Positions 13,057 through 59,137 of a DNA stretch of 64,000 nt are shown one piece after another (position 1 is the first letter of the stretch; each line of letters begins with the position of its first letter). Below the pieces are notes generated by a model. It did not search any database. It was given only the letters and a program-made list of their open reading frames with translations, and was not told where the DNA came from. The stretch lies in IMG/VR virus record IMGVR_UViG_3300025849_000009. One strand, given 5' to 3'. Both the position numbers and the translations under genes were made by a program. Source of the stretch: a virus.

Positions 13057-14388
13057 TTATTTCTTTCTCATAAATGATACATTAATGTATCTTTTCCCAC
13101 TGTGTATTGGTCTGGCACCATGTTTATGTGTAATCATTCCTGGGTGAATGGTTGCAGTGCCCACTAATTTTGGATTTGATAATATTTTATATTTTGGAAA
13201 CCATGTACCGCCTCCATCAAACTCATCGTTTAATTTTACTACCATTGTAATATGACTAAAGTCGTGATGTAAACTTAAATGAGATTGTCTATCAGTAGTG
13301 TATCTTACCATAAAGTTTTCAGTATCCATATTGTCCCAACCTGCACCTTCTAATTCCCATAAATGTATACAAAGAGGAGAAACTATTTCTCTTACAACTC
13401 TATTATAAATATGATCTAATCCTATTTCTGGTAATAAGACATCGTTTGTTGGATAAAATTCGTGTCTGTCTTTTGTCCATTTATCCATAACTTCTGCCAA
13501 ACCTACGGCTTCTTTACAGAATTTTTCTGTAAATAATGGAAACTCATAAATATTATTTCCTATATCATCTACCATTAAATCATATTCACCCTTAGATACC
13601 GTTTCGTTTACATATTTTGATTTCCATGAATCCCAATCACTATCATCTAATATTTCGAAATATGGTTGTGTTTTCAATAAATTAATATTCGCATCATATG
13701 GTTCTGTCATAGATTGTTCATGCGGTCTATTTTGTTCTATCCAATTATCAACTGGAGCTATCGCTTTAAGTTTTGGTGGAAACAGTATATTAATATCTTG
13801 TCTTCTATGCTCTGTATATGTTGCTGTTAAGAATTCGTCGGGTGCAATTAGATTTTGTTTAAAGTTATAATCATTGACTAGTATTTTTGCAGTGTCTCTT
13901 TTAATTACATACGCGTGTGTATTATAACTACTAAGAGCTGTTACCCATTTATTACTTGCATCAATTCTTTTTTCATCCTTAGAACATATAGCATTTCTAC
14001 CTAAAAATGCAATATCCCATTCTGTATTTGGAATAACTGGATTTGTAAGCGGAGCTACTGAAACAAAATCATCTTCTAATATTAATGCACAATTGACATT
14101 GTTTTCTATTATATTGTTCCATATACTTAAGTGGCTAATTGCACAACCTGCTTCTCCACCAGTAACATCTCTTTTCCACCAATCATTCCATGAATCAGAT
14201 CCTAAATTCCATAAATCATATACACTATGTCCATCTAATAAATTACCTGAAGTTCCATCAAAACCTTGAACTATTTCCCATTCTACAGAATATGGCATAC
14301 CAAGTTGATCTACCCTGGTGGCAATGTTTCTCTGAATACTTGGATCTCCGGCATTCAAACTTATAATATAAATTTTATCTATTTTCAT
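13057..14388 (-). CDS. GT25 glycosyltransferase fused to PLOD-like lysyl hydroxylase (2OG-Fe(II) oxygenase)
   Basis: N-terminal IYIISL, GE.GCAISH..IW, LILEDD, THAY; C-terminal FPLF..FC, NFMVRY...Q..L..HHD.S, GGGT.F, HPG..TH.H, RYI.VSF; start MKIDK overlaps upstream stop. Confidence 0.88.
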   Translation of the reverse strand: MKIDKIYIISLNAGDPSIQRNIATRVDQLGMPYSVEWEIVQGFDGTSGNLLDGHSVYDLWNLGSDSWNDWWKRDVTGGEAGCAISHLSIWNNIIENNVNCALILEDDFVSVAPLTNPVIPNTEWDIAFLGRNAICSKDEKRIDASNKWVTALSSYNTHAYVIKRDTAKILVNDYNFKQNLIAPDEFLTATYTEHRRQDINILFPPKLKAIAPVDNWIEQNRPHEQSMTEPYDANINLLKTQPYFEILDDSDWDSWKSKYVNETVSKGEYDLMVDDIGNNIYEFPLFTEKFCKEAVGLAEVMDKWTKDRHEFYPTNDVLLPEIGLDHIYNRVVREIVSPLCIHLWELEGAGWDNMDTENFMVRYTTDRQSHLSLHHDFSHITMVVKLNDEFDGGGTWFPKYKILSNPKLVGTATIHPGMITHKHGARPIHSGKRYINVSFMRKK

Positions 14389-15404
14389 ATAGATTCTAAT
14401 ATGTTTTTCCAATCATATGATCTGGCATTCCATGTTTGTTGTTTAGACCATTTATAAGCATCATTAATTGATTTATCTTTAAGTCCACTACTTAGTGTAC
14501 CTAGTATTTGTATAACCTGATTCCAATTTGTTTCATTTCTTTCTAAGATAACTCCACTATTTACAGTCTCTTTTAATGCTGCTACCGTGGTAACAATAGG
14601 TAATACTTTGGCATATTGCATTTCAAGCGCAGTAATACAATATGTTTCTTCATAATCAGTTACATAGCACCAATATTCTGCACGTAACATTGCAGCGTGT
14701 AATGTTTCTTGATCTACTGTACCATGACACGTAACTTCTTCAAACTTATTAAATGAATAGTCAGTATGATTTGCTATAGAATAGCCTGGAGAATATATGT
14801 CTAATGTTGCATGTGGCATTATATCTTTTATCTTTGGCCAGTTTTTTAATAATTCTAATAAGCCACGTTCAGGTGCAGAACTATATATGAATTTACCTTT
14901 TATTTTTTCAGGAGTACCATTAAATGTCGAAGGATCAATGGCATTACCAATCACTGAGATTTTATTTAAAGGTATATTATATGTGTGTGCCCAATGATTC
15001 TTATGCCAGTTAGTCAAACAAATTGTATGATCAACTTGTTGTGTTAAAATGTTTGCGTCTCCTAACACTTTATGATTCCACCATGGGTGATGATGTGTAT
15101 TATGTGCCCAAAATACTTTCTTTGCTGAATACCCTTCAAACTCTTTTAGAAAATGGATATAACTTGCAGATATAATATAATCAAACTGATCAAAATATTT
15201 TTCATGAACAGTATGTGTTGATATCCATTCTACACCATCAATTAAACCAGAATCTTTTACTTCACCAGAAACCACAACCTTATAACCAAATTTAACTATC
15301 TCTTTAGCTATATTAATTATAGCAATTTCAGTTCCTGCTAATCCAATACTGGTATTGCTATCAAATTTGTTTTTTTGATAACCCGCATAAAATAATATTC
15401 TCAT
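14385..15404 (-). CDS. GT-B (GT4-like) glycosyltransferase
   Basis: GTE, YSS.P.RGL..LL..WP, ETYCITALE. Confidence 0.88.
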   Translation of the reverse strand: MRILFYAGYQKNKFDSNTSIGLAGTEIAIINIAKEIVKFGYKVVVSGEVKDSGLIDGVEWISTHTVHEKYFDQFDYIISASYIHFLKEFEGYSAKKVFWAHNTHHHPWWNHKVLGDANILTQQVDHTICLTNWHKNHWAHTYNIPLNKISVIGNAIDPSTFNGTPEKIKGKFIYSSAPERGLLELLKNWPKIKDIMPHATLDIYSPGYSIANHTDYSFNKFEEVTCHGTVDQETLHAAMLRAEYWCYVTDYEETYCITALEMQYAKVLPIVTTVAALKETVNSGVILERNETNWNQVIQILGTLSSGLKDKSINDAYKWSKQQTWNARSYDWKNILESI

Positions 15405-15452: not shown

Positions 15453-16364
15453 TTAGTTCTTATTTCTTTTAACTTTAGGTGGAGCGTCTATAAACCAACC
15501 CTTATAATATTCTCTTTTTTCATAGATATAATTCATGTAATCATCCACTTTGCCCTTCCAATCTTCATCAATTGCTGGATTTATAATTCCAGATTTGTAA
15601 CTAGAAAAAACCTGATTAATCCATTCTGCACCGCTTTCTTTATTATCATAAAGACTAGAGTTTATAGTATAAAAAGATCCTCTGCTTATATTATTCCACA
15701 CATCCATTGGATAAACTTCTTTTTCAAGAACAACAGAATATAATGCACTTTCACTAATGTGTGTACTATATACTGTTTTAGCTTTTTGTAAAAAGTAATA
15801 AAGATCTATGTCTCTTGGTAAAATAGATTCTTCACCAAATAAATCTTTAATTTCACCTATAACTGCATGTGTAGTAATAGGATGTGGTTTAAAATAAACA
15901 TCACCTTTATGTTTCTCAGCAACTTCAATTAATTTATTTAAACAACAATTTTCTTTAAGCTTATTTGAACCTGGTAAAATAACCAAAGTGCTTTTATCTT
16001 CATATCTGTCGAAATCTTTCTTGCGATTTTGATATTTATTAGCTTGATCTTTTTCGATATTTTCTTTAAAGTAAGATACCCAATCATAGACGTGTTCGAC
16101 ATCATGTACTAAAGCATCAGCAATTTGTTCTCTTCTCATTTTGAGATTTAGTGGTTGCATTAAAAAACAAGTAGCATATTCTGTATATCCCATTGTTTTA
16201 AAGTACGGCATTTCTTCTGCTATAACATCATAACTGTGTTCTAATCCAAGTTCTCTACATTTTCTTAAAACATATCGTTCCACTTGTTCGAGTGGTTCTA
16301 GTTTTGTATTTTTCTTTAGAGGCCCAATTCTTTCATTTAGCACCTTTTTGTTAAACATTTCCAT
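15453..16364 (-). CDS. Putative CMP-sugar (Kdo/sialyl-type, KpsS/KpsC-like) glycosyltransferase
   Basis: YFKPHP motif followed by a ...V.S..ISES.L.S.VL.K.V segment typical of HP-motif GT-B enzymes; assignment tentative. Confidence 0.55.
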   Translation of the reverse strand: MEMFNKKVLNERIGPLKKNTKLEPLEQVERYVLRKCRELGLEHSYDVIAEEMPYFKTMGYTEYATCFLMQPLNLKMRREQIADALVHDVEHVYDWVSYFKENIEKDQANKYQNRKKDFDRYEDKSTLVILPGSNKLKENCCLNKLIEVAEKHKGDVYFKPHPITTHAVIGEIKDLFGEESILPRDIDLYYFLQKAKTVYSTHISESALYSVVLEKEVYPMDVWNNISRGSFYTINSSLYDNKESGAEWINQVFSSYKSGIINPAIDEDWKGKVDDYMNYIYEKREYYKGWFIDAPPKVKRNKN

Positions 16365-16438: not shown

Positions 16439-16468
16439 CAAAAAAAAAGCATACCTAAGTATGCTTTT
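16439..16468 (-). terminator. Intrinsic terminator after the Thr-rich gene pair
   Basis: AAAGCATAC-TTAG-GTATGCTTT followed by long T run. Confidence 0.8.
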
Positions 16469-16487
16469 TAAATTAATTGAGTTATTT

Positions 16488-19310
16488 CTAGTTACCATTA
16501 TAACTGTTTACTCTCCATTGTCTATTTGTATTATAAACATCTAGTGGTTCGTTAGTTGAATACCAAGTTTCTTGTACTTCGTAATCTGTACTCCACGTTG
16601 TAGTAATAGCACTTGTTGTAGATCTCGTTGTGTTCCACGTTGTTGTTGTGTTCCATGTGGTATTCCACGAAGTAGTAACACTATAGATAGTTGACCATAT
16701 AGTCGTTGTCGATTTAGATGTCGCTGCATTTGTATTAAATGTAGTCGTAGTTGATCTAGTCGTATTAAATGTGGTCGTAGTCGAGTGGCTTGTATTAAAT
16801 GTAGTCGTAGTCGTTTTAGACGTTGTTTGAGACGTATTAAATGTTGTCACCCATGATGTAGTCCATGAAGTTGTCGTTGACTGATTAGTATTAAACGTTG
16901 TCAACCAAGTTGTATTAAATGTAGTTATAGTTGACTTACTAGTTTGATATTGTGTAGTCCACGATGTTGTACGTGTATAGTTTGTAATTCTACTAGTTTC
17001 CCAAGTTGTTGTCCATGCAGTTGTCGTCGCATGTTCTGTTCCCCTATTAGTTCCTCTGGATGTACTCCATATAGTTACTGTCGAATGAGACGTTCCATGA
17101 TTCGTAGACTGGGACGTATTAAACGTAGTCGTAGTTGAATGCTCTGTTGACCTAGTTGTATTCCATGAAGTAGTCCATGAAGTATTGAACGTAGTTACTG
17201 TAGATTTACTTGTTGACCATGTTGTTGTAAACGTAGTCGTTGTTGAATGTTCTGTTCCTCTAGTCGTGTTCCATGAAGTTGTCCATGATGTATTGTAAAC
17301 TGTAGTCGTTGCTCTAGTCGTATTCCATGATGTGTTAAAAACTGTAGTAGTCACATGCTCTGTTCCTCTAGTCGTGTTCCATGAAGTTGTCCATGAGGTA
17401 GTATAACTCGTCGTCGTAGCTCTACTAGTTGACCATGTTGTATTAAATGTAGTTGTTGTAGATTTAGTCGTTGACTGATTAGTATTAAACGTCGTTGTCC
17501 ATGAGGTAGTATAACTCGTCGTCGTAGCTCTACTAGTTGACCACGTTGTATTAAATGTAGTTGTTGTAGATTTAGTCGTTGACTGATTAGTATTAAACGT
17601 TGTCACCCACGAAGTAGTCCACGAAGTTAACGTTGTTTTAGTTGTGTTCCATGTTGTGTTATAAACCGTAGTAGTTGACCTAGAAGTTGACTGATTTGTA
17701 TTAAAAGTAGTAGTCGTTGTTCTAGAAGTAGATCTCTTTGTATTTCGCGATGTTATCCAAGTAGTATTAAATGTTGTCGTAGTCGATTTGCTAGTTGACC
17801 ACGCTGTATTGTAAACTGTTGTTGTGGTTTTATTCGTGCCTCTGGTTGTGTTCCATGAGGTAGTCCACGAAGTAGTCCACGAAGTTAGCGTTGATTTAGT
17901 TGTGTTCCATGATGTGTTATAAACCGTAGTAGTTGACCTAGAAGTTGACTGACTTGTATTAAATGTTGTCGTAGTCGATTTACTAGTTGATCTAGTTGTA
18001 TTTCTTGATGTTGACCAGGTTGTCGTAAATGTTGTCGTAGTCGATTTACTTGTTGACTGGCTTGTATTAAAAGTTGTAGTTGTAGATTTATTAGTTCCTC
18101 TACTAGTTCCTCTTACGGTGTTCCATGAAGTTGTCCATGTAGTTACAGTGGATTTGCTAGTTGACTGACTTGTATTAAAAGTTGTCGTTGTTGCTCTAGT
18201 TGTGTTCCATGTCGTTGTAGTAGATTTACTAGTTGACCATGTTGTAGTCCAATTAGTTGTAGTAGATTTACTAGTTATAAACGTCGTTGTAGTAGATTTA
18301 CTAGTTGCAAATGTAGTAGTAGTTGAATGTTCCGTTGATCTACTAGTTATAAATGTTGTTGTAGTAGATTTAGACGTATTAAACGTAGTCGTTGTCGATT
18401 TACTAGTTGCCCATGTAGTCGTGGTTGCACGCGTTGTATTCCTATGAGTTGCAAATGTAGTTGTAGTAGATTTAGACGTATTAAACGTAGTCGTTGTTGA
18501 TTTACTAGTTGCCCACGTAGTCGTGGTTGCACGCTCCGTTGACTGACTTGTACTAAATGTAGTCGTTGTTGATTTACTAGTTGCCCATGTAGTCGTGGTT
18601 GCACGCGTTGTATTCCAAGATGTATTATATACAGTCGTTGTTGTTTTAGTTGTGTTCCACGTCGTTGTAGTTGCGCGTGATGTATTCCATGTAGTCGTGG
18701 TTGCACGCTCCGTTGACTGACTTGTACTAAATGTGGTCGTGGTTGCACGTGTTGTATTAAATGTTGTTGTGGTTGCACGTGTTGTATTCCACGAAGTAGT
18801 CCACGAAGTTAGCGTTGATTTAGTTGTATTGAACGTCGTCGTCGTAGCTCTAGTTGTATTCCAAGATGTATTGTATACGGTCGTGGTTGCACGCGTTGTG
18901 TTATACGTAGTCGTGGTTGCACGTGTTGTATTAAATGTTGTTGTTGTCGCCCTAGATGTAGATTGACTTGTATTCCACGACGTCGTAGTCGCCTTAGACG
19001 TATTCCACGTCGTCGTAGTCGCCCTAGACGTATTCCACGTCGTCGTAGTCGTCTTAGATGTACTCTTACTTGTATTATATGTCGTCGTCGTATTTTTATC
19101 TGTGAACCATGACGTCGTAACTTTAGTTGACCACCCCGTTGAAGTAGATTTATCTGTAAGTACATTCCAATAGGTAGTTTTTGCCGTATTCCTAGAAGTT
19201 GCCCTATTATATGACGTGTATAATGAAGTTGTTCGAGAATAACTAGTCGTCTTCAACGTGCTCCTAGATCCGGCGGTTAACCAAGTAGTATTAAAAAAAG
19301 TAGTAGGCAT
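16488..19310 (-). CDS. Thr-rich repeat protein, zipper strand P1 (940 aa)
   Basis: About 55 units of a 2-aa linker plus 4-aa blocks, aromatic T-x-(W/F/Y)-x or basic T-x-(R/K/Q/H)-x; antiparallel complement of P2. Confidence 0.9.
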   Translation of the reverse strand: MPTTFFNTTWLTAGSRSTLKTTSYSRTTSLYTSYNRATSRNTAKTTYWNVLTDKSTSTGWSTKVTTSWFTDKNTTTTYNTSKSTSKTTTTTWNTSRATTTTWNTSKATTTSWNTSQSTSRATTTTFNTTRATTTTYNTTRATTTVYNTSWNTTRATTTTFNTTKSTLTSWTTSWNTTRATTTTFNTTRATTTTFSTSQSTERATTTTWNTSRATTTTWNTTKTTTTVYNTSWNTTRATTTTWATSKSTTTTFSTSQSTERATTTTWATSKSTTTTFNTSKSTTTTFATHRNTTRATTTTWATSKSTTTTFNTSKSTTTTFITSRSTEHSTTTTFATSKSTTTTFITSKSTTTNWTTTWSTSKSTTTTWNTTRATTTTFNTSQSTSKSTVTTWTTSWNTVRGTSRGTNKSTTTTFNTSQSTSKSTTTTFTTTWSTSRNTTRSTSKSTTTTFNTSQSTSRSTTTVYNTSWNTTKSTLTSWTTSWTTSWNTTRGTNKTTTTVYNTAWSTSKSTTTTFNTTWITSRNTKRSTSRTTTTTFNTNQSTSRSTTTVYNTTWNTTKTTLTSWTTSWVTTFNTNQSTTKSTTTTFNTTWSTSRATTTSYTTSWTTTFNTNQSTTKSTTTTFNTTWSTSRATTTSYTTSWTTSWNTTRGTEHVTTTVFNTSWNTTRATTTVYNTSWTTSWNTTRGTEHSTTTTFTTTWSTSKSTVTTFNTSWTTSWNTTRSTEHSTTTTFNTSQSTNHGTSHSTVTIWSTSRGTNRGTEHATTTAWTTTWETSRITNYTRTTSWTTQYQTSKSTITTFNTTWLTTFNTNQSTTTSWTTSWVTTFNTSQTTSKTTTTTFNTSHSTTTTFNTTRSTTTTFNTNAATSKSTTTIWSTIYSVTTSWNTTWNTTTTWNTTRSTTSAITTTWSTDYEVQETWYSTNEPLDVYNTNRQWRVNSYNGN

Positions 19311-19385
19311 TCTCTATCTCTGTTGTTTTTTTATATATTTAAATTCTTTAATCATTTTATTTCTTAAAAAGTCTCTTAGTACTAC

Positions 19386-22300
19386 TTACCAAGCACAATC
19401 ACGCTCAGAATAACATATAGAACGAAAATCGCAATAATCTTCTGGACTACACAGTTGTTCTTTGTTATTATGTGTTAAAATTCCATTTGCAAAGAATGTA
19501 TCATTAGGTTCTACATCTAATTTATAAACAGTATATTGATTAACTTCATCTATTTCTAAAGATTCTATCAGAAATTCTCCATAATCCATTTTAAACATAA
19601 CATCACCAATCTCTAGGTGCTCCGCTAGTTTTGCTTGCCACATACCATCTCTTTTTATAATATGTATATGTGCCATGGTAGTTCTTAATTGGTCATTATT
19701 TATGCTAACTGTTCCTATAACGTCTGCTCTCCAAATACCGGAAACATTATGTTCATTAGATAATGTATTTGTGTATACTTCTTCTTCCCTAATTGTTGGT
19801 AATACAGTCATGTCATCTGTATTAAATGCTCCATCCATAGTTAAAATACTCTGGCCATGCACTAACGTTTCAACTGGTCTTTGTATTCCTTCAGCAATAT
19901 GTACTAGTGTTCCTTCAACTATACATTCCTCTATTGTGCTTCTAGATGTTCCACGAGATGTGTTGACATACAATGCTGTATTGTAACTTGTGATATATGA
20001 AACTGATGTATTCCAGGAAGTTATTTGCCCTGCACCACCACCTGAACTATTATCTGCAGGAACTAAAGTAATCCATGTTGTTGTTTTAGTTGTTGATCTA
20101 GAATATCCTGTAGAAACCTTTGTAATAGTTGACTTACTTGTATTTCTGTCAGTTACCCTAGAAGTTGCAAACCTAGTATTAGTAGATTTACTAGTTGCAA
20201 AAGTGGTCGTGTACGTCGTTGTCGTCGATCTACTAGTTGCAAATGTCGTTGTCGTCGATCTACTAGTTGCAAATGTTGTTGTTGTATTTCTACTAGTGAT
20301 CCAGTAAGTTGTCCATGCAGTTGTCGTCGATTTACTAGTTGACCAAGTTGTTGTTGTCGATCTACTAGTTGCAAATGTCGTTGTCGTCGTATGCTCTGTG
20401 CTTCTACTAGTACTAAATGTAGTCGTTGTAGATCTACTAGTTGCAAATGTTGTTGTTGTATTTCTACTAGTTCCTCGAGTCGTACCAAAAGTGGTCGTTG
20501 TTGATTTAGTTGTGTTGAACGTCGTCGTTGTTGACCTAGTTGTATTCCAAGATGTATTGTATACAGTCGTGGTTGCACGCGTTGTGTTCCAATTAGTTGT
20601 AGTAGATTTACTAGTAGCAAATGTTGTTGTGGTAGAATGCTCTGTGCCTCTACTAGTACTAAATGTAGTCGTTGTTGATTTAGTTGTGTTCCACGTCGTC
20701 GTCGTAGCTCTAGTTGTATTCCAAGATGTATTGAACACTGTAGTTGTAGACTGACTTGTATTCCATGTAGTCGTTGTTGATCTAGTTGTATTGTATACGG
20801 TCGTTGTTGATCTAGTTGTATTCCATGTTGTTTTAAATGTAGTCGTTGTAGACTGACTTGTATTCCATGTAGTCGTTGTTGATCTAGTTGTATTATATAC
20901 GGTCGTTGTTGATTTAGTTGTATTCCAAGATGTATTGTATACAGTCGTTGTTGCTCTAGTTGTGTTCCACGTCGTCGTTGTTGATCTAGTTGTGTTCCAT
21001 CGTGTTGTTGTTGACTTACTAGTAGACTGATTTGTGTTAAATGTTGTTGTCGTCGATTTACTAGTAGCAAATGTTGTTGTGGTAGATTTACTAGTTGACC
21101 ATGTTGTATTAAACGTAGTCGTTGTGTTTTTGGACGTTGATTTGGAAGTCAACACAGTTGTGTTCCATGAAGTTGTCCATGAAGTTGTAGTAGCTCTACT
21201 AGTTGACCACGTTGTATTAAATGTAGTTGTTGTAGATTTAGTCGTTGACTGACTTGTATTAAAGGTTGTACCAAATGTGGTTGTCCATGTAGTTGTCGTC
21301 GATTTACTAGTTGACCATGTTGTATTAAACGTAGTTGTTGTCGCATGCTCTGTGCTTCTACTAGTTACAAATGTTGTTGTTGTATTTCTACTAGTTGCTC
21401 TATTAGTTCCTCGACTTGTTACCCAAGTAGTTGTCCATGCAGTTGTTGTGGTGTGCGAAGTTGATTGACTAGTATTAAACGTAGTTGTTGTAGAACGATT
21501 CGTTGATCTAGTTGTATTCCATGAAGTAGTCCAAGCTGTGTCAAAAGTAGTAGTTGTAGATTTACTTGTTGACCATGTTGTTGTAAACGTAGTCGTTGTC
21601 GAATGTTCTGTTCCTCTACTTGTTACCCATGTTGTTGTGGTATTTTTACTAGTCGCCTTAGACGTTGATTTACTAGTAGACCAAGTTGTTGTCCATGTAG
21701 TTACTGTAGATTTACTTGTTGACTGACTTGTATTAAAAGTCGTTGTCGTAGATTTAGTAGTTGACCTAGAAGTTGACTTACTAGTTGACCAAGTTGTCGT
21801 AAATGTTGTTGTTGTTGATTTACTTGTTGACTGACTTGTATTAAAAGTTGTAGTTGTCGATTTACTAGTTACTTTACTTGTTGTTTGACTAGTGATCCAA
21901 GTTGTATTATATGTCGTTGTTGTCGAACGAGATGTTGATTGACTAGTACTAAACCTGGTCGTTGTTGAATGTTCAGTGCTTCTAGAAGTTATCTGAGATG
22001 TAATCCAAGTTGTATTATATGTAGTCGTTGTTGATCTAGATGTCGACTGATTTGTGTTAAATGTTGTTGTAGTACTACGATTAGTAGATCTTGTTGTCGT
22101 TTGACTAGTGATCCACGTTGTATTATACACTGTTGTTGTAGATCTATTAGTTGACCATGACGTTGTATATGTCGTAATATAAGAAGTTGTCGTTGATTTA
22201 CTTGTATTCCAAGAAGTTGTCCAATATGTAGTGTATGATGTAGTTGTACTTCTAGATGTGGATTGACTTGTGTTCCAGGTTGTTTCAACAGGATACAATG

Positions 22301-22736
22301 TGGATTGACTAGTTGTCCAACTAGTTGTCCATGTAGTAGTTGTAGCCCTCTCAGTTGATTGTGACGTGTTTTTAGAAGTCGACCATGTTGTTGTTGTAGT
22401 TCTATCAGTTTCTAAAGATGTTTCTCTAGAAGTGCTCCATGATGTAGTCCACGATGTTGTCGTTGATCTAGAAGTTGCATATACAGTATTAGTACTACGA
22501 GATGTATTGAAAGTTGTTGTTGTCGATTTACTAGTTGCCCATGTAGTGATCCATGTTGTCACCGTGGATTGACTAGTATTTCGTACTTTGTTAGTAGTTC
22601 TCGAAGTATTTCTATTTTCAGATGTAGTTTTGGAAGTAGCCCAAGTAGTATTCTTAGCTACGAGTGTACCCTTAGATGTATTCTGTGCACTTCCGGTACT
22701 CCAAAAGTCGATTCTTGAAAATCCTATATTCTTCAT
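19386..22736 (-). CDS. Thr-rich repeat protein, zipper strand P2 (937-aa repeat region + Hint domain + 26-aa Cys-rich tail)
   Basis: Same block grammar as P1; Hint domain CIVEGT...TTMAH...LDVE...GILTHN at aa 938-1090. Confidence 0.9.
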   Translation of the reverse strand: MKNIGFSRIDFWSTGSAQNTSKGTLVAKNTTWATSKTTSENRNTSRTTNKVRNTSQSTVTTWITTWATSKSTTTTFNTSRSTNTVYATSRSTTTSWTTSWSTSRETSLETDRTTTTTWSTSKNTSQSTERATTTTWTTSWTTSQSTLYPVETTWNTSQSTSRSTTTSYTTYWTTSWNTSKSTTTSYITTYTTSWSTNRSTTTVYNTTWITSQTTTRSTNRSTTTTFNTNQSTSRSTTTTYNTTWITSQITSRSTEHSTTTRFSTSQSTSRSTTTTYNTTWITSQTTSKVTSKSTTTTFNTSQSTSKSTTTTFTTTWSTSKSTSRSTTKSTTTTFNTSQSTSKSTVTTWTTTWSTSKSTSKATSKNTTTTWVTSRGTEHSTTTTFTTTWSTSKSTTTTFDTAWTTSWNTTRSTNRSTTTTFNTSQSTSHTTTTAWTTTWVTSRGTNRATSRNTTTTFVTSRSTEHATTTTFNTTWSTSKSTTTTWTTTFGTTFNTSQSTTKSTTTTFNTTWSTSRATTTSWTTSWNTTVLTSKSTSKNTTTTFNTTWSTSKSTTTTFATSKSTTTTFNTNQSTSKSTTTRWNTTRSTTTTWNTTRATTTVYNTSWNTTKSTTTVYNTTRSTTTTWNTSQSTTTTFKTTWNTTRSTTTVYNTTRSTTTTWNTSQSTTTVFNTSWNTTRATTTTWNTTKSTTTTFSTSRGTEHSTTTTFATSKSTTTNWNTTRATTTVYNTSWNTTRSTTTTFNTTKSTTTTFGTTRGTSRNTTTTFATSRSTTTTFSTSRSTEHTTTTTFATSRSTTTTWSTSKSTTTAWTTYWITSRNTTTTFATSRSTTTTFATSRSTTTTYTTTFATSKSTNTRFATSRVTDRNTSKSTITKVSTGYSRSTTKTTTWITLVPADNSSGGGAGQITSWNTSVSYITSYNTALYVNTSRGTSRSTIEECIVEGTLVHIAEGIQRPVETLVHGQSILTMDGAFNTDDMTVLPTIREEEVYTNTLSNEHNVSGIWRADVIGTVSINNDQLRTTMAHIHIIKRDGMWQAKLAEHLEIGDVMFKMDYGEFLIESLEIDEVNQYTVYKLDVEPNDTFFANGILTHNNKEQLCSPEDYCDFRSICYSERDCAW
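19467..19925 (-). other. Hint (intein-like/BIL) autoprocessing domain within P2
   Basis: Cys1, block-B TxxH, block-F Asp, terminal His-Asn; +1 residue Asn; no endonuclease. Confidence 0.88.
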
Positions 22737-22761: not shown

Positions 22762-25485
22762 TTACGCAAAATTTCCAATGTAGTTAACTAATACTGCGTC
22801 AACATCTATTATAATATATGATATAATAGATACTGCACCAGGAGTAGTTACCCATTGAATGTCAGCACCTGAGGGTGTTTTCATATAGGATGGTAATGCA
22901 TTGTATCCTGCACCTACACCATTATAGATTACTATAGTTCCAGATTGACCTACGTTGTCGTTACCTATGTTAGACATTGTAATATCAATTGATCCCGTTG
23001 CTGTAAATGCAAATGCGTCACCTTGATCAGGCTTAATGTCATAAACACCTCCAACACCGTTAACCGATATAATATCTCTTTTTAAAGCACCTGTTAAATA
23101 TAAATCATGATGCTCAACATTTGAATCTGTTTTTGTATGTTGATCCATTGCAGTTGCATAGGTATTAGAAGTACCAGTATTACCTTTTAAACCTGAAGAA
23201 CCTGAAGAACCACTTGATCCAGAAGATCCGTTAGTTCCATCAGTTCCTGAAGAACCTGAAGTTCCGTTTGTTCCTGAAGTTCCATTCGTTCCTGAAGTTC
23301 CATTCGTTCCTGAAGTTCCATTCGTTCCTGAAGAACCACTAGATCCACTTGAACCTGAAGTTCCGTTTGTTCCACTAGTTCCATCAGTTCCTGAAGAACC
23401 TGAAGTTCCGTTAGTTCCACTTGTACCGTCAGTTCCTGAACTTCCACTTGAACCTGAAGATCCGCTTGTACCATTCGTTCCACTTGTACCATTTGTACCA
23501 GACGTTCCATCAGTTCCTGAACTTCCACTTGATCCACTTGATCCTGAAGTTCCATCGGTTCCTGAAGTTCCGTTAGTTCCTGAAGTTCCATCAGTTCCTG
23601 AACTTCCACTTGAACCTGAACTTCCATCAGTTCCTGAAGAACCTGAACTTCCATTTGTTCCATTAGTCCCTGAAGAACCAGCTGGTCCTTGAATAGAACC
23701 GCCTCCAATCCAACCATCTGCTTGTGTAAATACCCAAAGAGAATCGTCTGATTGTACTATATATGCATCACCGTCAGAATTACCGCTTGTTGGTAAATTT
23801 GATGATGTAGCTACTTGTCCTTGCATTGAAACACCCCAACCTGGATTACCTTGTGCACCTGAAGATCCACTTGATCCAGAAGATCCACTAGAACCATCCG
23901 TTCCTGAAGAACCCGAACTTCCGTTTGTTCCATTCGTTCCACTTGTACCATTGATACCACTAGTTCCATCAGTTCCTGAACTTCCGTTTGTTCCACTTGT
24001 ACCGTCAGTTCCTGAAGAACCTGAACTTCCATTAGTTCCTGAAGTTCCATTCGTTCCTGAAGTTCCATTTGTTCCTGAAGTTCCATCAGTTCCTGAACTT
24101 CCACTTGAACCTGAAGATCCACTTGATCCGTTAGTTCCTGATGTTCCATTCGTTCCTGAAGTTCCATCAGTTCCTGAACTTCCATCAGTTCCTGAGCTTC
24201 CACTTGATCCGTCAGTTCCTGAAGTTCCATTCGTTCCTGAAGTTCCATCAGTTCCTGAAGTTCCATCAGTTCCTGAAGAACCGCTTGAACCCGAACTTCC
24301 ATTTGTTCCATCAGTTCCTGAACTTCCATTTGTTCCTGAAGTTCCATCAGTACCGCTTGTACCTGGAGCTCCTTTTTGTCCTTTAACACCGCTCGATCCA
24401 GAAGATCCGTTAGTTCCATTAATTGCTGGAGTTCCAGGAGCACCTTTAGCTCCGGTTGCACCAACGGGAATAGTAAAATCAAATTCAGCTGCAGTTGAGG
24501 TTCCAGTATTAGTAACACTTACTGGTGTATTTTCTAATCCAGTAGATACTGTTCCTACTGCAATTGTACCTGTAATTCCTGAAGATCCGCTTGAACCTGA
24601 ACTTCCGCTTGATCCATCAGTTCCTGATGTTCCAACATATACTACTCTACCTACAATTTCATTGCCATTTTGAGAATGAGTTAATATTAAATTATTTCCA
24701 GATAAAGTTGCTCCACTATAATTGTCACCTTTAACACCATCAACTCCACTTGTTCCATCCGTTCCTGAAGATCCACTAGAACCATCCGTTCCTGAAGTTC
24801 CGTTAGTTCCACTAGTACCATCAGTTCCTGAACTTCCACTTGATCCACTTGATCCTGAAGTTCCATCGGTTCCTGAAGTTCCGTTAGTTCCTGAACTTCC
24901 ACTTGAACCGTTTGTTCCCGAAGAACCTGAAGTCCCACTTACACCACTCGTTCCATCAGTTCCTGAACTTCCACTTGATCCATTTGATCCCGAGGTTCCT
25001 GATGTTCCAACATCACCAATAGGTTGAATAAACATAAATAAAGAATCATTATCACTAACATTATTCCAATTAGAACTTGAAATAGGTTGTAAGTTAAATG
25101 TTCTTTGTCCAGAAGCAGTTGTGTTTCCTGTTACATAGAATGATTTATTTGCATTACCATCAGTTGATTTTGCTAATACAATAATAGACTTATAACTATT
25201 AGATGAAGCGACTGCAGCATTTAATGTTACGGTTGCTGAACCACCTCTAGCATTAGTTTCACTTACAATTATTTTACTAGGATTACTAGGATTATCAAAC
25301 GCTAAATCACCAGAAGAAACTGTCGTGGGATTTGTTGCGTTATTATAAACATAAGGAAGTCCAAACGTATTTGGTAATTGTTGGTTTTCATACTTTCCGG
25401 TACTTGCATTATATGACAATACTTCACCAGTAGATGGAGAAGAAGATAAAAAGTCAAGTATTTGTTTTAATTTCAATTGAGACAT
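22762..25485 (-). CDS. Gly-X-Y (collagen-like, GTS/GTD/GSS) fibre protein
   Basis: Long G-X-Y runs between globular ends; GDAYIV knob. Confidence 0.85.
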   Translation of the reverse strand: MSQLKLKQILDFLSSSPSTGEVLSYNASTGKYENQQLPNTFGLPYVYNNATNPTTVSSGDLAFDNPSNPSKIIVSETNARGGSATVTLNAAVASSNSYKSIIVLAKSTDGNANKSFYVTGNTTASGQRTFNLQPISSSNWNNVSDNDSLFMFIQPIGDVGTSGTSGSNGSSGSSGTDGTSGVSGTSGSSGTNGSSGSSGTNGTSGTDGTSGSSGSSGSSGTDGTSGTNGTSGTDGSSGSSGTDGTSGVDGVKGDNYSGATLSGNNLILTHSQNGNEIVGRVVYVGTSGTDGSSGSSGSSGSSGITGTIAVGTVSTGLENTPVSVTNTGTSTAAEFDFTIPVGATGAKGAPGTPAINGTNGSSGSSGVKGQKGAPGTSGTDGTSGTNGSSGTDGTNGSSGSSGSSGTDGTSGTDGTSGTNGTSGTDGSSGSSGTDGSSGTDGTSGTNGTSGTNGSSGSSGSSGSSGTDGTSGTNGTSGTNGTSGTNGSSGSSGTDGTSGTNGSSGTDGTSGINGTSGTNGTNGSSGSSGTDGSSGSSGSSGSSGAQGNPGWGVSMQGQVATSSNLPTSGNSDGDAYIVQSDDSLWVFTQADGWIGGGSIQGPAGSSGTNGTNGSSGSSGTDGSSGSSGSSGTDGTSGTNGTSGTDGTSGSSGSSGSSGTDGTSGTNGTSGTNGTSGSSGSSGSSGTDGTSGTNGTSGSSGTDGTSGTNGTSGSSGSSGSSGTNGTSGTNGTSGTNGTSGTNGTSGSSGTDGTNGSSGSSGSSGSSGLKGNTGTSNTYATAMDQHTKTDSNVEHHDLYLTGALKRDIISVNGVGGVYDIKPDQGDAFAFTATGSIDITMSNIGNDNVGQSGTIVIYNGVGAGYNALPSYMKTPSGADIQWVTTPGAVSIISYIIIDVDAVLVNYIGNFA

Positions 25486-54384: not shown

Positions 54385-55195
54385 ATTTTTCTATTATTTT
54401 AACATCCCATTCAGGAATTCTATTATATTGATGTGCTATTTTATATAATTTATCATTAGAATCTACTAAATGATTACCTTTAAGAACAGGTAATCCATAT
54501 CTACTATTGATTAAATCACCTAAACCCCAATTTATATGTTGAAATGTTGGACCAGACAATGAACAATGTATTACCCACCCATCATTTGGTTTAAAAATCT
54601 TACAATTATCTATTTGGTTTTTATAAATTAGAATATTAAATGCTGCTTGATCTCTAATATCATGTCCATGTAATGCTCCATCAACTAATTTTTGTTGCAT
54701 TCTTAGTGTTTTTACTAGAGAATCTTTTTTACCTCCCATTACTCCACTACAAACAACTTCAAATGGTTTAATAAATTCATGATATTCCGGAAATGCTTTA
54801 TTCATAACATCCATATTCCATGGCTCTTCTCTATGGAATATACCTTCAGATGCTGCAAAAAAATCATAAGATTCAAAATCCATTAATTCAAATGGATCAC
54901 CTTGAAAACAAACATCAAAAACATCAGTAACCATAAAAACATCATAATCACTATTTTCTATCCAATTCGCTGTATGATTTAGTCTACTATCGTTAATTGT
55001 TAAGTTTTGATCAGTTTTTACCTCAAAATACTTAATATTATTAGTTTCTAATGACATTTTGTCATCTTCAGACATATCTGCTGCTATAAGAACTGCATCT
55101 CCGTTAGTTTGTTCTTCGAAACTATGAGCCCAAACTTTTATTTTATCAATATTTTTAGCAACATTGTTACTAACTCCAGTAAGTGCCTTTCTCAT
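54377..55195 (-). CDS. Putative GT-A glycosyltransferase
   Basis: TDVFDV.FQ.DPF, CSG..GG, DQAAFN, HQY.R. Confidence 0.7.
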   Translation of the reverse strand: MRKALTGVSNNVAKNIDKIKVWAHSFEEQTNGDAVLIAADMSEDDKMSLETNNIKYFEVKTDQNLTINDSRLNHTANWIENSDYDVFMVTDVFDVCFQGDPFELMDFESYDFFAASEGIFHREEPWNMDVMNKAFPEYHEFIKPFEVVCSGVMGGKKDSLVKTLRMQQKLVDGALHGHDIRDQAAFNILIYKNQIDNCKIFKPNDGWVIHCSLSGPTFQHINWGLGDLINSRYGLPVLKGNHLVDSNDKLYKIAHQYNRIPEWDVKIIEKYV

Positions 55196-56442
55196 TATAT
55201 GACTCTTTCTATTTTTTCACACCAACCTTTAGTTGTACTATATGGCCAAAATATCCATTTGTATGGTTTTTCACCTTGATAATCTACAACAACATTAATC
55301 CACTCATTATCAGAATTAAGTTTACTTTTAATTTCATTAGCATTTAAATCATTTCTATATACAGATGTTCCATCTTCTTTTTCACATATAACTGCAACGA
55401 ATTCATAATCGTTTTCTGTTAGCTTAGACTTTGGTATATCTATGAATGTTTTAAATTTTGATAGAAAACTATTGTCATAATCTAACGGTATTGGATTAGG
55501 TGACAATAAATTATCTAATGTGTGTTGTTGTACTCTTCTGTCTTTTAATCTAATTCCAGAATGTTTTTCCCAATCTGCAATAGTTCTAACTCTTCCTAAA
55601 CCATATTTACCAAATGTTTCATCTTCTGAATCAAAAGATTCTCCGTCAATACCTAATAGTTTACGAGTTTTTTCGTGAGTTCTATGATTTCTTTTGTGCC
55701 ATTCTGGGTCATCGTCCCATTGTTTAGTTCTACCTTTACGAGTATATTCATGCCAAGCAATTATTTTATGTGGGTGAAATAAGTCATATCCGTGTGTAAA
55801 TGCTCTAATAGCAATAGTTATCTCTTCACCATGAAAGTAGAATTCAGGATCATGTTGAACCTCAACTGCAAACTTACCTAAAGTAAATGCAAAATGAGCA
55901 GAGTAAAATCTAGAGGATACTGGTCCTTTTAGATTTTTCCAATTAGGTATACTCGCAGGCAAAAAGAATATTACACCCTCTGGTGTAAATCTATCAAAGT
56001 TCATTAACCACGGTTGATTTTGTCTGCCTTCAGGATCGTTATCGGGTTGATATGAGGAAATATAACTTGTAAGTAAAGGTTTTTCATAACCTTTAGCTTG
56101 TAAGCCTTTCAGCATAGTAATTAATTCTGTATCCCAGTTTTTAATAAATCGATGATGAGAATCTAATTGAAAGGTATATGTTTCTCCTTTATATAATTGT
56201 TGTATACTATTTCTAGCCCAACATGCTCCAGTAGAGTCTTTGTAATTTACATCTAAAATTCTAAATCTATCATCATCTTTATATAGATCCATTGTATCCC
56301 ATTCATCTTCTGGTGAATGTTGCCAACATATACCAAATCTAAGTCGATCTGGGTGTTCAGCGTTTTCTATACAATCTTTTAGAGTATTTAATAATTCAGG
56401 ATCTCTATAGCTAGCTATCTGAATAAAAATGGTTTCTTCCAT
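55195..56442 (-). CDS. GT60-like polypeptide/hydroxyproline alpha-GlcNAc transferase
   Basis: TIFIQIASYRDPEL, GACWAR, QLDSHHRF..WD, F.F.GEE, AFTHGYD, H.Y.R. Confidence 0.8.
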   Translation of the reverse strand: MEETIFIQIASYRDPELLNTLKDCIENAEHPDRLRFGICWQHSPEDEWDTMDLYKDDDRFRILDVNYKDSTGACWARNSIQQLYKGETYTFQLDSHHRFIKNWDTELITMLKGLQAKGYEKPLLTSYISSYQPDNDPEGRQNQPWLMNFDRFTPEGVIFFLPASIPNWKNLKGPVSSRFYSAHFAFTLGKFAVEVQHDPEFYFHGEEITIAIRAFTHGYDLFHPHKIIAWHEYTRKGRTKQWDDDPEWHKRNHRTHEKTRKLLGIDGESFDSEDETFGKYGLGRVRTIADWEKHSGIRLKDRRVQQHTLDNLLSPNPIPLDYDNSFLSKFKTFIDIPKSKLTENDYEFVAVICEKEDGTSVYRNDLNANEIKSKLNSDNEWINVVVDYQGEKPYKWIFWPYSTTKGWCEKIERVI

Positions 56443-56512: not shown

Positions 56513-59137
56513 TTATTCTATACCTTCTAGTTTTCTATTGTGTGTAATAATCTCATTGGCAATATATGTATCATTCTCTTCAACATCTATCTTATAAGTG
56601 TTAAAAGTTCCAGACATATCTTCAATTGAACTGATAATATGTTCTGTGCCATTATCATTTATAAAGATATCACCCTCTTTAATGTTTATTGCTTGAGTAA
56701 CCATCCATAAATTATCTCTTTTAATAATATGTAAATGTGCTACGGTCGATGTTAATAATCCCTGATTAAAGTTTAAAACTCTATTGACTGTATTCAATTC
56801 TATACCTACAATAGTTGTAGTTGTACTTGAAACTAGTGGATCGGTTTCTTCCCATGTTAATAATTCAAGCACGTTATCGGTGTTTGGCATATTACCTATA
56901 TTATTAGAAGCTAAAGTATCACCTACTTTTAATGTTTCTATTTGTGTAGATGTTCCATTAGGTAATTTAATTTGTGTACCTTCTAATAAACACTCACCGC
57001 TATCATCACATGCGTCTCTCGAAACATTACCTATCCATGTAGGAGCAAAACCACTTGACACTCTAATAATAGTCCACGGTGCTCCACTTTGGTAAGAAGA
57101 ACCTGTAAGTTCATATTTACCTCCTATTATTTTTTGAGTATTACTTTTAGCTTTGACATTCGGTTGCTCTGAATTACACGAACTCAATTCATATATCCAC
57201 ACCTCTGTTGGTGTTGCAGTTGGAACCGGTGTTGCAGTCGGTGTTGGTGTTGGCAAAACAATCTTCGTTACTGTTGGTGTTGCAGTCGGATACGGTGTTG
57301 CAGTTGGCGGAACTGCTGTTGGAACTGGTGTTGCAGTTGGAACCGGTGTTGCAGTCGGTGTTGGTGTTGGAACTGGTGTTGCAGTTGGAACCGGTGTTGC
57401 AGTTGGGTTAGGAGCTTCATAAACACATATAGTCTCACTAGTACATGAACTACCGGAAGCTAATCTTTCAAAACCACTAATACTAGTAACTGTTCCATTA
57501 TTATCAAAATCATATATGTTTACCACTTCTTGTGAACATACAGAAACAACATAACCTTCTTTTCCATTACGCCATACATTTGCAGTACTTAACATTTGAT
57601 TAAGGCGTGTATTTATATATGTTCCAGATCCTATTGATTTATATCTTAATCCATATCTATTTGAATCTACATTCGTGGCGAACCAAGAGTGTTGACAATT
57701 ACCCGTTGGAATATCTGTTGGAGATGGTGTTGCAGTTGGACTTAAAGAAGTATCATTAATATATAACCAATCCGTAGATGCAACTATAGTACCTGTGTAA
57801 CTACCTGTTCTAAGATGTAATTTAAATCTTTCTTGACCTTCGGTTAAATTATCTTGCGTTACTGTAAATCCAAATTGCCTTTTACCACTTTGTGGCGTAG
57901 ATACCCCGGTATTTTCTTGTATTGTAACTTGTCCTTGATTTGCAGCGGATGTATCACTAGACATGTTAGCAGTACTTCCAGAATCAACAGTCCAATATAA
58001 ATTAGTACCATAAGTAACATATTTTGTCAATGCATTAAATGTAAAACTTCCACCTTCATTAGCACTAGAAGTTGGTGATTCCAATGCATATTCTGGTGGA
58101 TAATAATAAATATTTGTTACTGTTGAACCATCAAAATAAAACGCAAAAGTAGAGCCATATTCATGATACCACCCTACAGGAGCATCATCACATGTTGGTA
58201 TATAACTTTCATCACATAATGATTCTATTCCCGTAATTAATCCAGAATTTACCCAATTCCCAGAAGCATCAAACGTAACTGTGTCATATCTACCAGCGGG
58301 TGTTGTTCCAATTGCTAAGTCATAATAAAAATTACCTCCTCCTGATGAATATGCACCTGTTGGATTTCTAGTACTTTGTACCATAACTTGAACGTCTAGT
58401 GAATCAACTATCCCAATAAGCGTATTATTAAAATATGCATTATCGATTAAATTATTTGTATCATCATCTCCACCTGGTACATTATCAGTAATTAATATGA
58501 TTATTTTAATTGCGTCAGATCTAAATCCTCCGGCAATTCCATTATTAACTATTTCGTTTACTGCTAACCCACCCGGTTCTGGACCTGCAGAACCAGCGCC
58601 CAAAGGAAAGTTAGAAGTATCTATCACATTTAACTTTGATTGAAAATCAGCTGTTTGACCTACGCCAAAAAATGGTGACATACATGTAATAAATTGAGTA
58701 TCGTTAGTTCCACTAGTTATCTTTACTTTTTGTGAAGCAGGTAAATTTTGATATATTGTGTTATTATAATTTGATGGTGCTGCCAGATTATTAGTACCAT
58801 ATTCATCAAATAATGTAAGACTTACTCTATAATTTCCATTTGATACAGTATTAATTGTATTTAGTATATTAGTAATACCTGCTTTTACACCACTTATAGA
58901 ACCACTCATTGAAGCGGTATAATCTACTAAAAATGCAACATCAAATCCAGCCGAACATGTAGTTGGTACTGTTAATTGATCCCCAACACCAGGTGTTCCA
59001 TTAATATGATATGGATTTACCGCGTTTGATGTAGGTGTGGCATTTAAACCATTATACGACGATGCGCTATAAACTAAGTTAATTAGATTCGAAGGTGGAA
59101 TACATTCTTCTCCATGTGTAAATACCGATATTGCCAT
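56513..59137 (-). CDS. Adhesin-like protein: vWA + Calx-beta-like + Pro/Thr repeat + C-terminal Hint domain
   Basis: FLVDYTASM (MIDAS-like), ILITD, D.LTEG.E.F.L, (PTATPV)n, CLLEGT...THN. Confidence 0.85.
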   Translation of the reverse strand: MAISVFTHGEECIPPSNLINLVYSASSYNGLNATPTSNAVNPYHINGTPGVGDQLTVPTTCSAGFDVAFLVDYTASMSGSISGVKAGITNILNTINTVSNGNYRVSLTLFDEYGTNNLAAPSNYNNTIYQNLPASQKVKITSGTNDTQFITCMSPFFGVGQTADFQSKLNVIDTSNFPLGAGSAGPEPGGLAVNEIVNNGIAGGFRSDAIKIIILITDNVPGGDDDTNNLIDNAYFNNTLIGIVDSLDVQVMVQSTRNPTGAYSSGGGNFYYDLAIGTTPAGRYDTVTFDASGNWVNSGLITGIESLCDESYIPTCDDAPVGWYHEYGSTFAFYFDGSTVTNIYYYPPEYALESPTSSANEGGSFTFNALTKYVTYGTNLYWTVDSGSTANMSSDTSAANQGQVTIQENTGVSTPQSGKRQFGFTVTQDNLTEGQERFKLHLRTGSYTGTIVASTDWLYINDTSLSPTATPSPTDIPTGNCQHSWFATNVDSNRYGLRYKSIGSGTYINTRLNQMLSTANVWRNGKEGYVVSVCSQEVVNIYDFDNNGTVTSISGFERLASGSSCTSETICVYEAPNPTATPVPTATPVPTPTPTATPVPTATPVPTAVPPTATPYPTATPTVTKIVLPTPTPTATPVPTATPTEVWIYELSSCNSEQPNVKAKSNTQKIIGGKYELTGSSYQSGAPWTIIRVSSGFAPTWIGNVSRDACDDSGECLLEGTQIKLPNGTSTQIETLKVGDTLASNNIGNMPNTDNVLELLTWEETDPLVSSTTTTIVGIELNTVNRVLNFNQGLLTSTVAHLHIIKRDNLWMVTQAINIKEGDIFINDNGTEHIISSIEDMSGTFNTYKIDVEENDTYIANEIITHNRKLEGIE
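56537..56992 (-). other. Hint autoprocessing domain
   Basis: Cys1, STVAH, IDVE, THN; +1 residue Arg. Confidence 0.88.
57205..57410 (-). repeat. Coding Pro/Thr repeat (PTATPV, 18-bp unit)
   Basis: Repeated GGTGTTGCAGT(T/C)GG. Confidence 0.85.

Follow-up and report, generated by a model that had tools for sequence, protein, structure and literature searches.

Why does a Hint domain sit at the very C-terminus of a threonine-rich viral protein, just before the gene of a second threonine-rich protein? The question is raised by two adjacent genes, P2 and P1, in a 64,000-nucleotide stretch of viral DNA (IMG/VR record IMGVR_UViG_3300025849_000009; hereafter, the window). A sequence-only reading had taken them for one giant protein palindrome split at its centre, where the Hint domain would either trim P2 to the length of P1 or ligate the end of the pair to a partner. 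Here the zipper formed by the two chains, its register, the matching of their lengths, the Hint fold, the conservation of its catalytic residues and the exchange of modules at its position were all computed.

P2 and P1 are adjacent threonine-rich genes

The transcription order had been read as P2 followed by P1, and this is borne out by the gene layout, with 75 nt between the two:

22762-25485, minus strand: collagen-like gene, before P2
19386-22736, minus strand: P2 gene, 1116 aa, encoding a Thr-rich zipper chain followed by the Hint and the Cys tail
19926-22736, minus strand: P2 N-fragment, aa 1-937, putative zipper strand (W/F/Y/K/R/H/Q/E at even positions, 199/218)
19311-19385, minus strand: P2-P1 intergenic spacer, 75 nt, without a terminator-like site
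16488-19310, minus strand: P1 gene, 940 aa, putative partner zipper strand (Met1 opposite P2 Ser927)
16444-16469, minus strand: terminator-like hairpin, directly 3′ of P1

Downstream of P1 lie genes for a KpsS-like protein of 303 aa, a GT4 glycosyltransferase and a GT25/2OG-oxygenase fusion. Threonine accounts for 37–44% of P2 and P1, which are made up of x-T-[ST]-[KRQW] tetrads and S-T-T-T-T-[FWY] hexads, and neither protein contains any Cys besides Cys938 and those of the P2 tail. Because every unit length is even (4, 10, 14 or 18 aa), W/F/Y/K/R/H/Q/E are kept at even positions (~90%), with zero phase slip across 900 residues in all lineages. In the window, the P1 ATG lies 78 nt from the P2 stop and shares the reading frame of P2. 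A read-through fusion of P2 into P1 was rejected, as the corresponding spacing is 62 nt in relative L003 and 52 nt in L001, and the frame is not conserved; the gap between the genes spans 3–75 nt among relatives.

The two chains show antiparallel complementarity

Pairing was scored as the number of aromatic residues of one chain facing K/R/H of the other, counted over all shifts. In antiparallel orientation, P2(1-937) and P1 formed 153 pairs in one sharp peak (p+q=928), against 92 at the next best shift, at most 49 in parallel orientation, and 78 and 82 for P2 and P1 each paired with itself. Shuffling the order of the P1 units 1000 times yielded a mean of 38.6 pairs (sd 4.6, maximum 55; z=25 for the observed peak), so that the proposed pairing of P2 C-terminal with P1 N-terminal units lies far beyond chance. 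Within the register, Q faces only W (Q:W 28 vs Q:F 0) and H faces only Y (H:Y 14 vs 0 for H:W or H:F). An antiparallel peak was also found in five other lineages, and cognate P2/P1 pairs reach 130–185 complementary pairs vs 77–100 for non-cognate combinations. P1 Met1 faces P2 Ser927, ten residues short of the Hint residue Cys938, in a register that is extrapolated from the zipper body over the last ~50 residues by the turn, where pairing is thin.

The relation between P2 and P1 is a mirrored complementarity at the protein level. Local blocks of the two proteins are collinear copies within each zone (best local matches), and the 6.4 kb P2-P1 region contains only two trivial DNA inverted repeats, which together rule out a palindrome of sequence or DNA. 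The antiparallel mirroring behind the idea of a giant palindrome is therefore real, but the sequence palindrome is not. On this pattern, P2(1-937) and P1(1-940) are best read as the two strands of a long (~930-residue) antiparallel hetero-zipper. The zipper is probably a glycosylated virion fibre, for which the neighbouring genes are the sole pointer to a location in the virion, and its closed end, formed by the C-terminus of P2 and the N-terminus of P1, is probably the distal end.

The P2 C-terminus carries a Hint domain resembling A-type BILs

The position and residues read earlier for the Hint domain proved exact, namely Cys938, T1020xxH1023, H1089-N1090, Asn1091 at +1 and a tail with four Cys:

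19467-19925, minus strand: Hint domain, 153 aa, P2 aa 938-1090, A-type-BIL-like by AF2 model, Foldseek and profile
19923-19928, minus strand: predicted scissile junction Glu937-Cys938 (Hint Cys1, invariant in 29 sequences)
19923-19925, minus strand: Cys938 codon
19668-19679, minus strand: block B, T1020-M-A-H1023, with invariant T (19677-19679) and H (19668-19670)
19467-19475, minus strand: block G, T1088-H1089-N1090, with the invariant terminal His-Asn
19389-19466, minus strand: 26-aa tail, aa 1091-1116, with +1 Asn1091 and +2 Lys1092, then C-x5-C-x5-C-x5-C

A block-F Asp had also been proposed; Asp is present (D1079 is invariant and D1074 nearly so), but its assignment is ambiguous, and Lys1072 occupies what we take to be the canonical intein F:4 position.

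An AF2 model of the domain built from a 12-sequence alignment reached a pLDDT of 83.5. When searched against the PDB with Foldseek, it matched Tetrahymena BUBL BIL2 first (6y75/6tmm; E 4e-9) and the C. thermocellum BIL (2lwy) next, with inteins (E 1e-6 to 1e-4) and hedgehog (1AT0; E 1.8e-5) ranking lower. There were 51 PDB matches at E<=1e-3, and those among the matches listed are all Hint domains (BILs, inteins, hedgehog). A profile of the Hint alignment ranked PDB sequences similarly (BIL2, 8.6e-16; C. thermocellum BIL, 3e-9; best intein, at least 2e-8), and Pfam models gave only sub-threshold matches. The modelled horseshoe beta fold, the N-terminal Cys and the block B TxxH place the domain in the HINT superfamily. 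Its terminal His-Asn, the lack of a nucleophilic +1 residue and a sequence that resembles BILs more closely than it does inteins or Hog domains suggest an A-type BIL.

Two better-known identities were rejected. A canonical (class 1) intein does not agree with Asn at +1 or with a C-extein that consists of a 26-aa tail absent or different in relatives, and a Hedgehog-type Hog domain does not agree with the terminal HN or with the mere 26-aa Cys tail that follows the Hint. No homing endonuclease was found in the P2 Hint.

P2 matches P1 in length once the Hint is left out

Scanning IMG/VR and metagenomes with the Hint domain and the conserved 303-aa neighbour as queries recovered the P2/P1 gene module from a large number of marine contigs, which reach 174 kb in length. 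In the 18 complete Hint-bearing pairs, which are not phylogenetically independent, the length of P2 before Cys1 follows that of P1 with r=0.9996. The difference (P2 before Cys1 minus P1) stays between -19 and +3 while this part of P2 ranges from 413 to 1026 aa. Examples in aa, P2 before Cys1 first, are 937/940, 971/974, 1026/1042, 890/909, 683/689, 480/478 and 413/410. The suggestion that the Hint trims P2 to the length of P1 thus gains strong comparative support. In every Hint lineage, P2 extends -1 to 10 aa beyond P1 Met1 before Cys1 is reached, and the expectation that Hint position is tied to pairing geometry holds throughout.

Insertions and deletions behave in the same manner. The comparison of the window with L003 gives +24 and +10 in P2 but +10 and +24 in P1, so that the order is mirrored, and the indels of the two genes lie about equally far from the turn. 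Indels of 86 and 86 in the two partner genes distinguish L165 from L170, and indels of 68 and 68 distinguish L154 from L008. Such same-size changes, the protein equivalent of compensatory change, support 1:1 antiparallel pairing of P2 and P1, with the Hint apparently at the closed end. No open reading frame in which a Hint is followed by in-frame P1 occurs among the 18 complete pairs, nor, in what is a weak test, among proteins of at least 1954 aa. Alleles with an empty site, in which the Cys tail would directly follow the zipper, were absent from the fetched loci.

Catalytic residues are kept at the junction and lost elsewhere

Conservation was assessed in 29 non-redundant zipper-associated Hints, down to ~41% identity with that of the window. 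Cys1, T..H, HN and ~20 other positions are invariant in all 29. The residue at +1 is N, K, R, A or F and never C, S or T, in keeping with the earlier view that canonical splicing is not to be expected from these sequences. Lys occupies +2 in 27/29 and Asp or Glu occupies -1 in 21/29. The tails span 3–50 aa and always hold an even number of Cys (0, 2, 4 or 6). Cys-bearing tails share a motif of the type C..PE[VI]CDPGS.CYDPC, and several lineages have Cys-free tails of 5–6 aa (FKISP, AKIDP, KDDKKG).

The zipper-associated P2 Hints form one clade (support 91/89) that tracks the zipper genes and is nested within a clade of phage C-terminal Hints (98/86). Members of this wider clade cap fn3-, BACON-, collagen- and VWA-containing proteins and have tails of 2–7 aa. 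One such VWA protein, without a zipper partner, is encoded in the window itself (ORF 56513-59137, Hint at aa 716-867). The Hint is thus a generic module that the zipper family has fixed at a single, precise position. Sister phages carry a further Hint copy between P2 and P1, fused behind a methyltransferase (hhalign probability 98.9%), in which Cys1 has become Gly and HN is lost, whereas all junction copies retain both. Judged by these sequences, the methyltransferase-fused copy can serve as an internal control for relaxed selection.

Other lineages close the zipper differently

Self-cleaving modules of another kind take the place of the Hint in sister lineages. Their P2 ends in a knob of ~100 aa followed by a Peptidase_S74 self-cleaving chaperone domain (PF13884, matched by 10/10 sister-lineage C-termini in Pfam, best E 1.3e-7); a profile of these S74-like ends gave nothing significant against PDB sequences. 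Intramolecular chaperone domains of the Peptidase_S74 type are removed from tail fibres and spikes after assembly. This domain (~60 aa, C-terminal, starting with SD(R/K)xxKxxI) is absent from P2 of the window. Hint and Peptidase_S74 thus swap as modules at the closed end of P2, and S74 may be the functional equivalent of the Hint. Trimming to equal length is not universal in the wider family, since the ~100-aa knob of the sister lineages stays after S74 cleavage. In yet other lineages P2 ends in a knob alone or in a short GGCxRGC[IM].

One relative, L070, joins both strands in a single chain of 1297 aa that starts like P2, ends like P1 and has neither Hint nor Cys. Its self-antiparallel peak of 116 at p+q=1293 (next best, 80) obeys the same code (Q:W 38 vs 1; H:Y 8 vs 0), and its turn is a loop of ~10 aa, GGDAKAKAAE. 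AF2 run on the single sequence of 400 aa around this turn returned an uninformative pLDDT of 36. A fused, self-complementary homologue, as the sequence-only reading had envisaged, hence exists. Descent of the pair from a single hairpin protein does not follow, because a FastTree phylogeny of one neighbouring gene groups L070 as sister with the L008 lineage, which bears a Hint; on this slender basis the fusion looks secondary.

Discussion

Three results point to self-removal as the core function of the Hint: it is exchanged for Peptidase_S74, its copy away from the junction is dead, and P2 and P1 agree in length only with the Hint taken off. We therefore favour, with a probability of about 0.62, the reading of the Hint as a removable, self-excising cap at the closed zipper end. 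As an active A-type-BIL-like module, it would undergo an N-S acyl shift of Cys938 at the Glu937-Cys938 junction after translation. The Glu937 thioester would then most likely be resolved by water, presumably in preference to acyl transfer, because the acidic -1 residue would favour hydrolysis; Asp or Glu at -1 is known from intein work to do so. P2(1-937), equal in length to P1, would be released, and cyclisation of Asn1090 would separately detach the Cys-rich tail. The Hint could then act as a C-terminal maturation cap, or perhaps an assembly cap, of the fibre tip. From the sequences we infer that Hint cleavage occurs in P2, and the earlier interpretation of the role of the Hint is, as a whole, partly supported.

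Hydrolysis by itself does not account for three conserved features: HN, Lys at +2 and a tail with an even number of Cys. As none of these is needed for N-terminal cleavage, more than hydrolysis may occur, which keeps alive a ligation in cis that we regard as a possible but rather unlikely outcome. In such a BIL-type reaction, the Hint would excise itself and join P2(1-937) to the Cys-rich tail either by aminolysis following Asn cyclisation, which gives a peptide bond, or through an isopeptide linkage with Lys1092, leaving the mature tip with a small Cys-rich cap stabilised by metal or disulfides. The invariant His-Asn, the +2 Lys (27/29) and the conserved tails with even Cys and a common motif would all find a use, and in Hint-less relatives P2 itself terminates in a Cys-containing end or knob. 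Precedents are available: type A BILs, with thioester formation and terminal Asn cyclisation, can splice by aminolysis when a freed amino group attacks (PMC4031507), and BIL2, the nearest solved structure, hands its N-extein acyl group to an amine to make an isopeptide bond to the epsilon-amino group of Lys (PMC8616854). Against this, characterised type A BILs, which have His-Asn and no +1 nucleophile, yield mainly cleavage products (PMC4031507), the tails of several lineages are 5–6 aa long and without Cys, and the fetched loci contain no empty-site allele.

Ligation in trans, in which the N-terminal amine of P1 attacks the Glu937 thioester, seems improbable to us. It would employ a complete (non-split) Hint with the zipper as template and produce from two genes a single chain of ~1880 aa, similar to the single-gene beta-hairpin of L070. 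BIL domains do pass acyl groups to amines (PMC4031507, PMC8616854). The idea gains plausibility from the proximity of P1 Met1 to the thioester (10 residues; -1 to 10 in relatives) and from L070, a natural hairpin whose ~10-aa loop shows that a covalent turn is tolerated, and the 3–75 nt gap without a terminator fits coupled synthesis. Counting against it, P1 has Pro or Ala as residue 2 and lacks a conserved nucleophile (Lys, Cys, Ser or Thr) close to its N-terminus, and members of this Hint clade also cap proteins without a zipper partner. Moreover, sister clades have a pure protease (S74) or nothing at the place of the Hint, HN and +2 Lys would be superfluous for such chemistry, and the -1 Asp/Glu again speaks for hydrolysis.

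We consider it very unlikely that the Hint escapes processing and stays as a folded distal tip domain, for example a binding knob: globular domains are usual at fibre tips and a dead Hint serves as a non-catalytic module in sister phages, but the catalytic residues are all invariant in the P2 copies and lost in the non-junction copy, and the lengths of P2 and P1 would no longer agree. Less credible still is a selfish intein-like element in decay that does nothing for the fibre, since the mobility of Hint elements and the tolerance of a gene end to insertion are set against a missing homing endonuclease, one clade of P2 Hints tracking the zipper genes (91/89), invariant catalytic residues and a position that in all lineages lies -1 to 10 residues from where the zipper ends.

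A collection of cultured phages contained no relative of the flanking DNA or of the module, and only weak intein matches to the Hint; likewise, nothing relevant was found in the literature on Thr-rich phage zippers or Hint-capped fibres. A two-gene, length-matched zipper with a Hint at its closing point thus appears not to have been described previously, as far as these searches reached. The self-excising cap would give known BIL/Hint autoprocessing a new structural job: completing the closed end of a zipper whose two strands come from separate genes, match in length and pair by a code. Equal lengths, matched indels, the Hint/S74 swap and the natural fused hairpin make both the zipper and the cap testable, and some P2/P1 pairs are short enough for expression (413/410 aa and 188/196 aa). 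Should the code (K/R:aromatic, Q:W, H:Y) and the self-removing cap prove to work in this way, they would constitute a new fibre architecture of marine phages and, possibly, a principle for designing programmable beta-zippers whose caps leave no trace.

Comparison with known systems

With canonical inteins the P2 Hint shares the fold and blocks A, B, F and G, but it lacks a +1 Cys/Ser/Thr, a conserved extein to re-join and a homing endonuclease. Like the Hedgehog C-terminal autoprocessing domain (1AT0), it is a C-terminal Hint predicted to release the N-terminal part of its protein via a thioester that an external nucleophile resolves; Hedgehog differs in having no terminal His-Asn, a sterol-recognition region and cholesterol as the acceptor. 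Peptidase_S74 domains (PF13884), such as those of the K1F endosialidase and the T5 L-shaped fibre, are likewise self-cleaving C-terminal modules at the distal end of phage fibres, as the P2 Hint is predicted to be, although the fold and chemistry of this Ser-Lys dyad protease are unrelated. The best match by both structure and profile is BIL2 of Tetrahymena thermophila BUBL (6TMM/6Y75), which shares ~17% identity with the P2 Hint and, unlike it, is flanked by ubiquitin-like domains and takes part in protein conjugation in a ciliate. Closest in kind are the A-type BIL domains (Amitai 2003; Dassa 2004; PDB 2LWY), which share the Hint fold, Cys1, TxxH, a terminal His-Asn without a +1 nucleophile, and a seat in variable, non-housekeeping proteins of surface type. 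The P2 Hint departs from them in three ways: it ends a phage fibre-like protein, with just a tail of 2–50 aa after it; its +2 Lys is nearly invariant; and it occupies a fixed place where a two-gene zipper closes.

Single-chain and miniature zippers

Among the loci related to the window, L070 encodes a natural single-chain zipper, which turns at GGDAKAKAAE near residue 646 and contains neither a Hint domain nor cysteines. L176 encodes a miniature P2/P1 pair.

L070:3550-7443, natural single-chain zipper, 1297 aa
L176:947-2592, miniature P2/P1 pair

The miniature pair runs from a P2 zipper part of 188 aa through the Hint and the tail RKDFPEPL to a P1 of 196 aa, a size handy for experiments. Basic residues are scarce in this pair, and its pairing code may therefore differ.

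P2 ends in relatives

In sister lineages, the P2 C-terminus consists of a ~100-aa, cysteine-containing knob followed by a Peptidase_S74 self-cleaving domain, and a spermidine-synthase-like methyltransferase gene (185-194 aa) lies between P2 and P1.

L074:6452-7051, L083:6944-7543 and eight further loci (alignment A4), P2 end with knob and Peptidase_S74

At three loci from Hint-less sister phages, the gene between P2 and P1 codes for a class-I methyltransferase with a catalytically dead Hint behind it, in which Gly stands in place of Cys1 and LMK in place of THN.

L075:4233-5279, L071:6512-7561 and L103:7399-8436, class-I methyltransferase with dead Hint, 345-351 aa

P2 ends in GGCxRGC[IM] in these phages, and the dead Hint behind the methyltransferase is possibly a module that recognises the fibre tip.

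Genes flanking the zipper

Three further genes of the window lie on either side of the P2/P1 pair.

22762-25485, minus strand, gene upstream of P2, also present in relatives
15453-16364, minus strand, highly conserved 303-aa protein, KPHP motif, glycosyltransferase-like
13057-14412, minus strand, GT25 and 2OG-oxygenase fusion of the collagen-modifying type

At its longest, the upstream product is a Pro-poor, collagen-like protein of 907 aa, and at its shortest it has 159 aa. Its C-terminal motif (..SIISY..VLxNYxGxF) is constant in the window and relatives, and it may be the docking partner of the zipper's open end. The KPHP protein, always encoded directly after P1, shares 64-96% identity across lineages whose zippers are far more diverged.

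A second Hint-terminated protein

The window encodes another protein ending in a Hint, which has 35% identity to that of P2.

56513-59137, minus strand, 874-aa protein, VWA-like N-terminal domain with DxSxS
56537-56992, minus strand, its Hint (aa 716-867), with Cys1, STVAH and THN
55195-56442, glycosyltransferase, 415 aa, 70 nt after the VWA-Hint gene

A 7-aa tail, RKLEGIE, follows the Hint, and the VWA-Hint and glycosyltransferase gene pair recurs in L179-L192. In its domain combination, the 874-aa protein is reminiscent of the eukaryotic Vint proteins.
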